NCBI GenBank assembly: GCA_031459875.1
Contig: JAVKHQ010000003.1
Coordinates: 1-64,000, forward strand
Reading direction: 5' to 3'
Length of the DNA stretch: 64,000 nt
DNA from: Candidatus Fervidifonticultor sextus
Lineage (GTDB): Bacteria; Sysuimicrobiota; Sysuimicrobiia; Sysuimicrobiales; Humicultoraceae
Below, piece after piece: positions 45,207-53,008 of this stretch. Each line of letters begins with the position of its first letter. Positions within the stretch are counted from its first letter, which is position 1. Both the position numbers and the translations under genes were made by a program. The notes under the pieces are model-generated. The model was not told the origin of the DNA and did not search any database. It saw only the letters and a program-made list of their open reading frames with translations.

Positions 45207-45400
45207 AGCCCGCGCTGTCCGGCGCCAACACCCCGTCCGAACAGGGCACCCTGGGGTCCTCTTCGTAGTTCCCGCAGGGTTCCATCCGGTCTGTACCTGA
45301 GGGCAAGACCCGGTGACCACCCGATGTGGGACGTCCATCTCCCTCTCTACACTGAGGGCGCGCTGCGGCGTCCCCGCCCGGCGCAGGGGTGGAGAGGGGT

Positions 45401-45676
45401 ATGCTCATTCGACGCGAGCACCGAGCAGTGCTCAGCGAACAGCGCCGGGCGGCCGGACAGGCCGTGCACCGCGACGCGCTGGCGGCCGAGCGCTCCAGGC
45501 GCCAATGGGAGCGGGTCCGTCTGGCACTGGCCCGATCCGGCCATCGCGCCGTGCTCCGGGCAGAGCGGGATCAACTCCATGCCGCCCGTCGGGAGCATAA
45601 GCGGGCCCTGCAGCAGAACCGGTGGCTGCTGGCCCTGGCCGAATTGCTGGAGGCGCGGAGGGGACGGGCAGCGTAG
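45401..45676 (+). CDS. Small Arg/Ala-rich helical hypothetical protein (91 aa)
   Basis: SD GGAGAGGGG before the ATG; fills the intergenic gap; helical composition. Confidence 0.55.
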   Translation: MLIRREHRAVLSEQRRAAGQAVHRDALAAERSRRQWERVRLALARSGHRAVLRAERDQLHAARREHKRALQQNRWLLALAELLEARRGRAA

Positions 45677-45704: not shown

Positions 45705-45736
45705 TTGAGCGCGCCCGCAGCACCAGTGTACACTGG
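45705..45736 (+). promoter_or_regulatory. Putative sigma70 promoter overlapped by a perfect 14-bp palindrome
   Basis: TTGAGC-18 bp-TACACT; CCAGTGTACACTGG at 45723-45736. Confidence 0.5.
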
Positions 45737-45766
45737 GGACGAGGCCGAAGCCTCGTCCCTTTCTGC

Positions 45767-46690
45767 ATGGGGGCAGGAGAAGCGCGGGTGCGGGCCATTG
45801 AGGTCGTCAGGGCGTTCTTCGAGCGGGCGGGTGAGCCGGCGGCGGTGTATCTGTACGGCCGCTACGGGAGCGGGCCGAGTTATCCCGACACCGACATCGA
45901 GCTGGGCCTGGTGTTTCCCGAAGGCGTCGGCGAGGACGAGATCCAGGACTACCTCGAACGCATCTCCGATGCGGGACCGCTGGGGGGAGAGCCCGGGATC
46001 CTGATGCCGTTCGCCCTGAATACCCACATCCCCCCGGTCGTCCACGAGATCCTGGTGGGCGGATCGCTGCTCGTGGACAACGACCCGCGCGTCCGGATCG
46101 CCTTCGTGGAGCAGGCGAGGCGGCGGATTGAGTCGGCGCGCCCCAGCCTGCTCGAGGACGCCCGCGAGGCGATCATGCAGGCCAGGGCGCTGGGGCTCGC
46201 CATGACCACCGCGCAGGGGTACGTCCTCCCCCAGCCGCCCCGCTACCTCGACCCGGTCCGGATCGGCTGGCGACTGAGCCGGATCCTGGCGTCGGTGGCC
46301 GTGCTGGAGGCGACCACCCGGGAGATGGAAGCCGCCTCCCGCGATCCGGACCGCCTCGGCCAGGTCATCGGATGGTTCAGCAACGCGGCCGGGGCGGCGA
46401 CCGGGATCGCCAAGGCCATGCTCAACATCTTCGAGATGGAGCGGCCGCCCCGGCGGTGGCAGGTGTTCATCCCGATCGCCGATGCCGGCCTGATCCCCAT
46501 GGACCTGGCCCTGGCGTTGGGCTCGCTCGTCGAACTCCGCTGGCAGTTGATGGGCACCGGAGGCCTGATCACGGCCGACCGCATCCTGATGGGCATTCGC
46601 GGCGGACTGCCGCACCTGGTGGCGTTCGCGCGTCAGGCCGCCTGGTACTGCGAGGTCCCTGCGGGTCCTGGTGAGGTGAAGGTGCACTGA
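45767..46690 (+). CDS. Fusion of a minimal nucleotidyltransferase (MntA-like) and a HEPN/DUF86 (HepT-like) domain, both with altered catalytic motifs
   Basis: AVYLYGRYGSGPSYPDTDIELGL (canonical LFGS...DSDID); HEILVGGSLL; C-terminal helical domain ...ADAGLIPMDLALALGSLVELRWQLMG (canonical RNxLVH). Confidence 0.7.
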   Translation: MGAGEARVRAIEVVRAFFERAGEPAAVYLYGRYGSGPSYPDTDIELGLVFPEGVGEDEIQDYLERISDAGPLGGEPGILMPFALNTHIPPVVHEILVGGSLLVDNDPRVRIAFVEQARRRIESARPSLLEDAREAIMQARALGLAMTTAQGYVLPQPPRYLDPVRIGWRLSRILASVAVLEATTREMEAASRDPDRLGQVIGWFSNAAGAATGIAKAMLNIFEMERPPRRWQVFIPIADAGLIPMDLALALGSLVELRWQLMGTGGLITADRILMGIRGGLPHLVAFARQAAWYCEVPAGPGEVKVH

Positions 46691-46737: not shown

Positions 46738-47019
46738 GTGGCCGGATCGGTAACCGTCGAGGTTGTGCCGACCCCCAACGTGAACGCGCTGAAGTTCGTG
46801 GTCAACCGGCGGCTGACCGAGGGGCGCAGTCAGACGTACCGGTCGGCCGAGGAGGCCGACCGGCATCCCCTGGCCGCGGGGCTGTTCGCCATACCGGGCG
46901 TCGTTCAGGTCTTTCTGTTGAACGATTTCGTGACCGTCACGCGCGATCCCCAGGCTGCCTGGGAAGAGATCGTGCCGTCCGCCGAGGCCGCCATCCGGGC
47001 GTACCTGGAAACGCCATGA
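46738..47019 (+). CDS. Stand-alone Nfu/NifU N-terminal domain protein
   Basis: PTPNVNALKF, PLAAGLFAIPGV and DFVTVTR...W. Confidence 0.88.
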   Translation: MAGSVTVEVVPTPNVNALKFVVNRRLTEGRSQTYRSAEEADRHPLAAGLFAIPGVVQVFLLNDFVTVTRDPQAAWEEIVPSAEAAIRAYLETP

Positions 47020-47040: not shown

Positions 47041-47520
47041 GTGGAACTACGGCCGTTTGAGGTCGTCGCGGCGTGCGAACTGCGCAGCCTGCCCACCGGG
47101 CAGGACATCGCAGACCTGACCGCGCGCCTGGAGCGCGCGCGCGCCAAGGTGGCGGCTGTGGTCAGCGCCACACCCCAGCCGCCAGCTATCTATCGGAATC
47201 TCGCCTACGTGCTCGAGACCCGATGTGTCGCCTGGGCGAACACGGCGGAGGAGGCCGCGGATCTGGTCAGGCGCCTCCTGGACGAGGCCGGGGTACCCTG
47301 CCGCAGCGTGTATCGCTCGGGCCGGGCTCTCGCCCCCACCGACGTTCCGCGTCCAGAGGCTCCGGCGTCGCACCCCCGCAGCCGGAGGACGCGAGCCCCT
47401 GCTCGGGTTCCGGCAGCGAAAGGCCGGGCCCGCGCCGCCCGCGTCAGGGTCCAGGGCAAGGCCGCCTCCCGGGGCACCAGGAGGGGAGCCTCCGCCAGGA
47501 AGGCCGGCAGCCGCCGGTAG
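47041..47520 (+). CDS. Hypothetical protein with basic low-complexity C-terminal tail
   Basis: SD AGGAGG; globular-looking first about 95 aa, then an R/K/A-rich tail. Confidence 0.6.
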   Translation: MELRPFEVVAACELRSLPTGQDIADLTARLERARAKVAAVVSATPQPPAIYRNLAYVLETRCVAWANTAEEAADLVRRLLDEAGVPCRSVYRSGRALAPTDVPRPEAPASHPRSRRTRAPARVPAAKGRARAARVRVQGKAASRGTRRGASARKAGSRR

Positions 47521-52177: not shown

Positions 52178-53008
52178 ATGGCAGACCTGGAAATCCGAGA
52201 TCTCCACGTGCAGGTTGAGGACAAGGTCATCCTCAAGGGGGTCAACCTGCAGCTCTCCAGGGGAGAGATTCATGCCGTCATGGGACCCAACGGGTCGGGC
52301 AAGAGCACGCTGGCCAACGTGCTCATGGGGAACCCCTTCTATCAGGTGGCGAGGGGGGACGTCCTCTACAAGGGAGAGGACCTGCTGGCCATGACGCCGG
52401 ACGAGCGGGCGCGCAAGGGTCTGTTTATCGCCTTCCAGTATCCGGTGAGCATCCCCGGCGTGACCATGGCCAGCTTCCTGCGCACCGCGGTGTCGGCGCG
52501 CCGCGGCTACGAGCACGAGCTCATGCCGGCGGGCGAGTTCCAGAAGCTGCTGCGCGCGAAGATCGAGGCCCTCAAGATCGATCCGTCGATCGCCGGCCGG
52601 TACGTGAACGAGGGGTTCTCCGGCGGCGAGAAGAAGCGGGCCGAGATCCTTCAGATGGCGCTGTTGGAGCCCGAGATCGCCATCATGGACGAAACCGACT
52701 CCGGGCTGGACATCGACTCGGTCAAGATCGTGGCCGACGGCATCATGGACATGTTCACGGAGGCCAGGGGTCAGATGGGCGTGATGGTCATCACCCACTA
52801 CTCGCGCATCCTGCAGTTCCTGCGGCCCCACCATGTGCACATCATGTACGACGGACGGATCGTCGTCTCGGGCGGCCCCGAACTGGCCGAGGAACTGGAG
52901 CAGCACGGATACGAGGGGATCAGGCGGCAGTTTGAGGTCATTGCCGCCGAAGTCGAGGCCTCGGGCGCGGTCCGGCGGGCCGGCAAGGTCTTCTGGGTCG
53001 TGCACTGA
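52178..53008 (+). CDS. sufC: Fe-S cluster assembly ATPase
   Basis: MGPNGSGKST, AFQYP, NEGFSGGEKKR, DETDSGLDID and ITHY. Confidence 0.97.
   Translation: MADLEIRDLHVQVEDKVILKGVNLQLSRGEIHAVMGPNGSGKSTLANVLMGNPFYQVARGDVLYKGEDLLAMTPDERARKGLFIAFQYPVSIPGVTMASFLRTAVSARRGYEHELMPAGEFQKLLRAKIEALKIDPSIAGRYVNEGFSGGEKKRAEILQMALLEPEIAIMDETDSGLDIDSVKIVADGIMDMFTEARGQMGVMVITHYSRILQFLRPHHVHIMYDGRIVVSGGPELAEELEQHGYEGIRRQFEVIAAEVEASGAVRRAGKVFWVVH

Follow-up and report, generated by a model that had tools for sequence, protein, structure and literature searches.

Features of the locus

The window, a 64,000 nucleotide stretch of DNA, belongs to a member of the phylum CSP1-3/Sysuimicrobiota. An open reading frame on its forward strand (45767-46690) runs for 307 codons without interruption, contains the motifs YGRY...DTDIE and RWQLMG, and has a G+C content of about 0.70, the same as its flanks. 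The frame is as open as the initial annotation described it, and the motifs are as quoted there. However, the more likely start is GTG 45788, giving a protein of 300 aa, rather than ATG 45767 (307 aa), because a GGAG (45776-45779) lies 9 nt 5' of this GTG and because 57 of the 63 genome-derived orthologues have a length of 299-300 aa when counted from the equivalent position. Residues are numbered here in the 300 aa form, i.e. the numbering of the 307 aa frame minus 7. The parts of the gene and its surroundings are listed in Table 1.

Table 1. Features of the fused mntA-hepT-derived gene and its immediate surroundings
Feature	Position in the window	Strand	Basis
Candidate sigma70-type promoter, TTGAGC-18 nt-TACACT	45705..45734	+	Upstream comparison of 63 orthologues
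CDS, fused MntA-HepT-derived protein, probably 300 aa (307 aa from ATG 45767)	45788..46690	+	Orthologue lengths, GGAG
MNT (MntA-like) domain, residues 1-99, strongly acidic	45788..46084	+	Predicted structure, Z 10.9 to 6m6v_A; charge count
Remodelled NTase motif, G24-R25-x8-D34-T35-D36-I37-E38 (canonical GSx10DxD)	45857..45901	+	Residue counts, n=160
M73, place of the third catalytic Asp (MntA D71)	46004..46006	+	Residue counts
Long helix, residues 100-134 (MntA C-terminal helix), into linker; R133 invariant	46085..46189	+	AlphaFold2 model, alignment
HEPN (HepT/DUF86-like) domain, residues 155-287	46250..46648	+	Structural match, alignment
Dead RNase motif, R251-WQLM-G256-T-G258 (HepT R97...H102-x-Y104)	46538..46561	+	Gap-free structural match and residue counts
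Flexible tail with a [L/V/I]-His-stop end, a candidate Lon degron	46649..46690	+	pLDDT, alignment
Stand-alone Nfu_N gene, conserved downstream neighbour	46738..47019	+	Pfam match, synteny

Fold and fusion

All profile matches of the protein were under the curated cut-offs, both in Pfam (Polbeta, E 0.0025; HepT-like, E 0.29) and in NCBIfam (MntA, E 0.0011; HepT, E 0.0057). Their order, an MntA half followed by a HepT half, is the one stated earlier. At E<=0.01, the MntA profile was matched by 41 and the HepT profile by 30 of 43 family members. The AlphaFold2 model of the protein has a pLDDT of 90.9 and a pTM of 0.90; Foldseek alone returned no match to it at E<=0.001. Structural alignment of the predicted HEPN half with HepT (5yep_B) gave Z 17.0 and an rmsd of 1.7 Å over 133 aligned residues, with residues 155-287 pairing with HepT 1-133 without gaps. 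For the predicted MNT half and MntA (6m6v_A) the values were Z 10.9 and 2.9 Å over 115 aligned residues. The alignment of a profile of the 43 members with eight fused MNT-HEPN proteins whose motifs are intact runs from end to end (99.7%, 281 columns). From the fold matches and the end-to-end alignment it follows that both halves descend from a HepT/MntA-type module. The MNT-HEPN fusion claimed in the initial annotation is thus borne out, with the NTase and the HEPN fold each matched structurally.

Distribution, inheritance and selection

The fusion gene was matched in 88 of 94 genomes of the phylum (53 of 54 high-quality genomes), full-length in 86, where it forms one ORF and not two adjacent genes. 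It is single-copy; second matches were obtained in four genomes, all of them weak (E>=3.8e-5). By comparison, SufC was found in 79 of the 94 genomes (E<=1e-60) and Lon in 85 (53 of 54 high-quality). The six genomes without a match do not demonstrate true gene loss: four are also without nfu-N, and two have nfu-N at a contig edge. Ordinary HepT genes are patchy in the phylum, where a genome has between 0 and 6 matches; 47 of the 94 genomes have a HepT-like match that passes the cut-off, in four cases the fusion gene itself. In family f3, HepT is present in 3 of 22 genomes, versus 20 of 22 for the fusion gene.

In a quick maximum-likelihood gene tree built from 63 members, six changes are needed to place the seven family labels, the minimum number (mean of shuffled labels, 30.9). 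The median dN/dS (Nei-Gojobori) was 0.107 and the maximum 0.37, as calculated from the 43 of 1,953 pairs with more than 85% identity, which are not independent of one another; both halves are constrained. Neither the 72,556 plasmids nor the 50,697 phages searched by tblastn contained a match. When 1.84 billion representatives were searched with a profile, nine matches reached E<=1e-10, consisting of one full-length family representative, fragments of the family and one ordinary MntA. Below these nine, ordinary MntA-like proteins were found, with eight motif-intact fusions among the best 150. Named family members are assigned to Armatimonadota, 'bacterium' or Sysuimicrobiota, and a search for shorter forms yielded four proteins of 98-159 aa, one of them labelled partial. 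On the basis of the 94 phylum genomes and the representative-protein search, the family looks confined to Sysuimicrobiota.

The fusion gene is a vertically inherited core gene of Sysuimicrobiota. The domestication proposed in the initial annotation is upheld by its phylum-wide single copy, the family-congruent tree and purifying selection; its orthologues are neither sporadic nor drifting neutrally. Contigs from one RNA run of relatives overlap parts of the gene, an overlap that cannot show transcription.

Nucleotidyltransferase half

Residues were counted in 160 distinct family sequences, i.e. 43 genome-derived sequences plus the best 120 of 259 matches, with duplicates removed. They were compared with 138 canonical MNTs that fit the motif pattern, out of 140 taken from the profile search. 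The Ser that follows the Gly of the canonical motif is present in 135 of the 138 canonical MNTs versus 3 of the 160 family sequences, in which position 25 is R, Q, T, K, A, S or H. The second carboxylate is Asp in 137 of 138 canonical MNTs and Glu in 160/160 of the family (Asp 0/160). As third carboxylate, D or E is found in 111 of the 138 canonical MNTs and in none of the 160 family sequences, where position 73 is Met (147) or Leu (13) and no D or E occurs anywhere in residues 71-76. The replacement of GS by GR and of SDID by TDIE noted for the window copy is present; the Thr at position 35 is trivial (S in 81 and T in 78 of 160), and the loss of the third Asp at M73, absent from that note, is more telling. 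MntA no longer AMPylates when GS or DxD is changed, and its second Mg is bound by D71 (PMC7641770). A D-x-E pair by itself is not fatal, E52 being the wild-type residue of ANT(4') (PDB titles 'E52D mutant of ANT-4'); D-x-E is also the form present in kanamycin nucleotidyltransferase.

G24, D34, D36, E38, H80 and E87 are invariant in 160/160. E87 aligns with the adenosine-binding Q85 of MntA, and G24, S/T35, D36, E38 and E87 coincide in the alignment with ATP/Mg contacts of MntA. Since these motif losses are accompanied by invariant residues, the site is, judged from its residue pattern, remodelled under selection, neither drifting nor abandoned. The mean net charge of the MNT domain is -11.1 in the family versus -3.1 in canonical MNTs; an acidic MNT half that has lost the phosphate-binding Ser argues against tight ATP binding. 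The MNT half is probably not a two-metal transferase.

HEPN half

In the structural pairing, R251 corresponds to R97 of HepT, G256 to H102 and G258 to Y104. R251 is invariant in 160/160, while none of the 160 sequences has a His in residues 252-258 or a Tyr in 252-262. The RNase His and the AMP-acceptor Tyr are gone, and of the RX4HXY motif of HepT/MntA only the Arg remains in the family. RWQLMG in place of RxxxxH and the missing Tyr, both reported for the window copy, are therefore features of all family sequences counted. The further claim that both active sites are eroded holds for the RNase site and needs qualification for the NTase site, where D34, D36, E38, H80 and E87 are kept.

Invariant residues of the HEPN half are D155, R158, W161, R162, R165, N199, G202, G206 and K209, followed by R219, R222, R223, W224, E249, R251, W252 and R265. 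The canonical polar face of helix 2, ER..Q...E...D...H, is replaced by G195, S198, G202, G206 and A210, and no acidic residue is among the listed variants at helix-2 positions 195, 198, 199, 202 and 206. In the Legionella HEPN, helix 2 builds the RNase dimer and bears an alternative Mg site (PMC11586414); a site of that type is also removed from the family, because these positions are without acidic residues. HepT contacts adenosine through N7, R59 and D103 in the AMP-PNP complex (PMC7641770). W161 aligns with N7, and the places of R59 and D103 are variable in the family. In addition to the terminal His, 32 other residues are invariant in the folded body of the protein.

Predicted homodimer

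The homodimer prediction, in which ATP and Mg were included and which listed no contacts to either ligand, reached a score of 0.58 compared with 0.14 for the best of three controls, a score that may partly reflect likeness because HEPN dimers are already solved. Of 30 solved pairs, 20 attained the mark for a homodimer, as did 1 of 23 single chains. Between runs at least 87% of the contacts recur, with a pLDDT of at least 87. The predicted interface is formed by residues 224, 237-253 and 265-275 and includes the invariant W224, L242, E249 and R265. It differs in its helices (237-253, 265-275) from the alpha1/alpha2/Y-loop interface that is used by the active Legionella HEPN RNase dimer (PMC11586414). 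The prediction supports the formation of a homodimer.

C-terminal tail

The last residue is His in 160/160 and the preceding one is L, V or I in 160/160; positions 293-298 vary. At the third-last position K (76), R (42), T (19), W (8), H (7), P (5) and L (3) were counted. Residues 297-300 have a pLDDT below 50. Both His codons and all three stop codons are used at the C-terminus of the family, and selection thus acts on the residue. C-terminal His is under-represented in the host genome (36 of 2,818 script-called genes, 0.62x), and across the genome [LVI]H endings show no enrichment (7 of the 36 His endings; internal rate, 0.23). Invariant last residues are also found in some other neighbours, e.g. 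SufB.

A terminal His is the main determinant of one class of Lon degrons (PMC11986505, PMC10665427). The fusion tail fits the features of such a degron in its terminal His, the hydrophobic residue before it and its exposed position, and Lon is encoded in 85 of the 94 genomes, in the host genome on a different contig from the fusion gene. The Yersinia consensus has L or I two residues before the terminal His, a position at which the listed natural degrons vary (PMC11986505); the fusion tail lacks this residue, having mostly K, R or T. By analogy with the known degrons, the tail likely sets the half-life of the protein via Lon turnover.

Conserved His endings were also observed in unrelated proteins of the phylum. 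The SufC protein encoded at 52178-53008 (+) is extended at its C-terminus by about 28 aa with the ending AGKVFWVxH, the terminal His being present in 42 of 42 distinct phylum sequences; usual SufC proteins are not known to have it. A DUF151/bifunctional-nuclease protein (L119:298-828 = G000:C25:12697-13227), picked because the host copy ends VH, is present in 60 of 61 sampled genomes and ends in His in 28/28 sequences (30 loci, minus one off-contig and one duplicate).

Genomic context and upstream region

The fusion gene and nfu-N are both present in 82 genomes. In 71 of these they share a contig, within 18 kb of each other in 71/71, and in 61 genomes nfu-N lies on the same strand at most 3.5 kb downstream. 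The sufCB genes follow in families f1, f2, f4 and f6; cox and pdh are near the fusion gene only in f1 loci. Of the housekeeping neighbours named in the initial annotation (cox, nfu, pdh, suf), nfu-N is thus conserved, suf more loosely, and a functional link to cox or pdh was rejected. Intervening and upstream genes are variable (PknB, a sigma54 regulator with rpoN, LysR, gltB, histidine kinases), and the neighbours point to no single pathway. The conserved gene order is ancestral and may not reflect functional linkage. The stand-alone Nfu_N protein is cysteine-free, has 93 aa and occurs in 84 of the 94 genomes.

Both boxes of the candidate promoter are kept in 15 of 63 orthologues. A -10-like hexamer was found within 65 nt upstream in 49 of the 63 by a pattern chosen after inspection (shuffled mean, 6.4; maximum, 14), and in 18 orthologues it is located 5-8 nt before the start. 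These upstream patterns suggest that the fusion gene is transcribed from a housekeeping promoter of its own, often as a leaderless message. The hexamers that many orthologues have 5-9 nt ahead of the start codon suggest that leaderless mRNAs are common in the phylum. A promoter and terminator scan of the region returned nothing, the candidate promoter being under the scan threshold.

Comparison with known systems

The family shares both folds with the type VII toxin-antitoxin HepT/MntA of S. oneidensis (SO_3166/SO_3165, PMC7641770) and keeps the equivalents of G27, S38, D39 and R97. HepT/MntA are encoded by two genes, however, and the equivalents of S28, D41 (to Glu), D71, H102 and Y104 are changed in essentially all family members. 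FhepTA of Shewanella (PMC13000451), also a type VII toxin-antitoxin, is, like the family, one MNT-then-HEPN polypeptide of similar length. In FhepTA both GSx10DxD and RxxxxHxY are retained, the protein AMPylates itself and its HEPN half is toxic; it resides on mobile elements and is mainly monomeric, whereas in the family none of the motifs is intact, the gene is a single-copy core gene with a His-ended tail and the protein is predicted to be dimeric. In the Lon degrons of SulA, Y2853, Smg and LarA, too, an unstructured tail ends in a His that is preceded by a hydrophobic residue (PMC11986505, PMC10665427); these articles describe them for Proteobacteria, and the third-last residue differs as given above. 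That domesticated MNT-HEPN modules with a dead HEPN are a source of regulatory enzymes has already been proposed (PMC3710099).

KNTase/ANT(4'), AadA and GlnD/GlnE resemble the family in combining an NTase with an RNase-dead HEPN-type bundle and in their housekeeping-like retention, and D-x-E is as in KNTase. They are active transferases with distant HEPN bundles, whereas the halves of the family are closest to MntA and HepT. These domesticated enzymes have a third carboxylate on the strand after DxD/E, which the family is without (residues 71-76, n=160). In MAB21L1 and MiD51 the NTase fold lacks part of the carboxylate triad and is thought to bind, not transfer, nucleotide; both are eukaryotic and of unrelated architecture, and the likeness is one of analogy only.

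No description of the family was found among the papers listed by searches of the open literature. The main text of PMC11604079 has no occurrence of toxin, HEPN or nucleotidyltransferase.

Interpretation

The preferred reading, to which a probability of about 0.45 is given, is that the MntA-HepT fusion is a non-toxic, non-catalytic ligand-binding regulator, a core protein that is turned over by Lon and is predicted to form a dimer. An MntA antitoxin and a HepT toxin are fused in it, and the residues for RNA cleavage and self-AMPylation are lost. The MNT pocket may hold one metal ion, probably together with a nucleotide, and would be unable to place the catalytic metal. The surface of the HEPN half, rich in Arg and Trp, would bind RNA or another phosphate-rich ligand, and the MntA helix, locked onto the glycine-lined HEPN helix, would freeze the neutralised state. 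The tail would set the protein half-life, with Lon turnover proceeding through the terminal His. The domestication is real and well supported; the function is a proposal drawn from the sequences. [quoted passage not shown]

The invariant D34, D36, E38, E87 and E249 would also be expected of an active enzyme, which is a counter-point to reading the protein as a pseudoenzyme. The main alternative, a retargeted, active nucleotidyltransferase of the KNTase/GlnE kind, with substrate binding by the dead HEPN half and with D34, E87 or E249 as third carboxylate, is considered somewhat unlikely. D36 and E38 are at the canonical spacing, D-x-E works in ANT(4') (PDB titles), E249 is placed within the predicted dimer interface, and MNT-fused HEPN domains are typically without RNase residues and serve active transferases (PMC3710099). 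This reading has to accommodate three MntA catalytic features altered together (Ser 3/160, second Asp 0/160, third carboxylate 0/160) and a very acidic MNT domain, and none of the whole-chain structural matches to KNTase (Z 7.5), AadA (Z 6.6) and GlnE (Z 6.6), with an rmsd of 4.7-4.9 Å, is outstanding. It is improbable that the main role is to activate Lon allosterically or to serve it as an adaptor, in the manner of LarA or HspQ, the MNT-HEPN body being a sensor or scaffold. The window copy does end V-K-V-H, comparable to V86-x-V88-H89 of LarA (PMC10665427), and Lon is as widespread as the fusion gene, but 32 other residues are invariant in the folded body, lon is on another contig, and the His endings of SufC and the DUF151 protein suit a general degron better.

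A decoy for active toxin-antitoxin systems, as suggested in the initial annotation, is weakened by the patchiness of HepT, which passes the cut-off in no more than 47 of 94 genomes, in four of them through the fusion gene, and is far behind the fusion gene in f3. Canonical HepT/MntA pairs and intact fused copies do occur in the phylum, with one pair in the host genome, but glycines have replaced the helix face through which the Legionella HEPN builds its RNase dimer; a trans-acting antitoxin that poisons incoming HepT by dead heterodimers is thus quite improbable. Also weighed was a rewired RNase, with His300 or H80 supplying the catalytic His beside R251, perhaps in RNA processing: R251 does not vary, no His other than H80 and H300 is conserved, and HEPN proteins with a conserved His elsewhere exist (PMC3710099). 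This reading is strongly doubted, because the tail has a pLDDT below 50, the unrelated SufC and DUF151 proteins share the His ending, and the predicted dimer uses residues 237-253 and 265-275, not the active Legionella interface. Least of all is a still addictive or defensive toxin-antitoxin module like FhepTA to be expected: all defining catalytic motifs fail, and the gene is single-copy, vertically inherited and absent from the plasmids and phages searched, against which stand the end-to-end homology with intact fused MNT-HEPN proteins and weak matches of 13 of 43 members to the PADLOC candidate profile PDC-S09.

Toxin-antitoxin genes are normally mobile and patchy, and domestication has usually been argued from old, distant cases such as GlnE and KNTase. 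In the present family the two halves can still be recognised as MntA and HepT, relatives that are intact occur in the same genomes, and the gene is conserved like lon or sufC. It offers a direct before and after comparison of the residues that were dropped, those newly fixed and the present role. Being single-copy, the fusion gene is a candidate signature of a phylum that is abundant and uncultured; its tail, by analogy, points to a terminal-His proteolysis signal outside Proteobacteria.

Other observations

The host genome has a canonical two-gene mntA-hepT pair at L082:1047-1884 (G000:C1) with intact GSx10DxD and RNRLAHEY. Among 14 canonical HepT loci retrieved, seven are fusions with intact RNxxxHxY. 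Motif-intact, FhepTA-like fused genes are scattered in the phylum (loci L151, L152, L154, L157 and L160-L162), most of them with a shortened spacing between GS and DxD and none ending in His. The protein as a stand-in for a missing CCA-adding enzyme was rejected, the host genome having a PF01743 gene.

In several f3 genomes (L043-L048, L071-L073) the fusion gene and nfu-N are set apart by a partly inverted block of about 11-18 kb in which histidine kinase, LuxR, HTH-TPR and cold-shock genes lie; two f3 genomes keep the two genes adjacent. Two ORFs of the window, 45389-45676 (+, 95 aa) and 47041-47520 (+, 159 aa), have no Pfam match; each has relatives in a few other genomes of the phylum. Directly after the candidate -10 box, which itself lies inside the palindrome CCAGTGTACACTGG, a perfect 10-bp inverted repeat, GGGACGAGGC-CGAA-GCCTCGTCCC, is located at 45736-45759. 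It may serve as an operator, form a 5' stem-loop or terminate the upstream gene, and similar hairpins are found in a few f1 relatives only.
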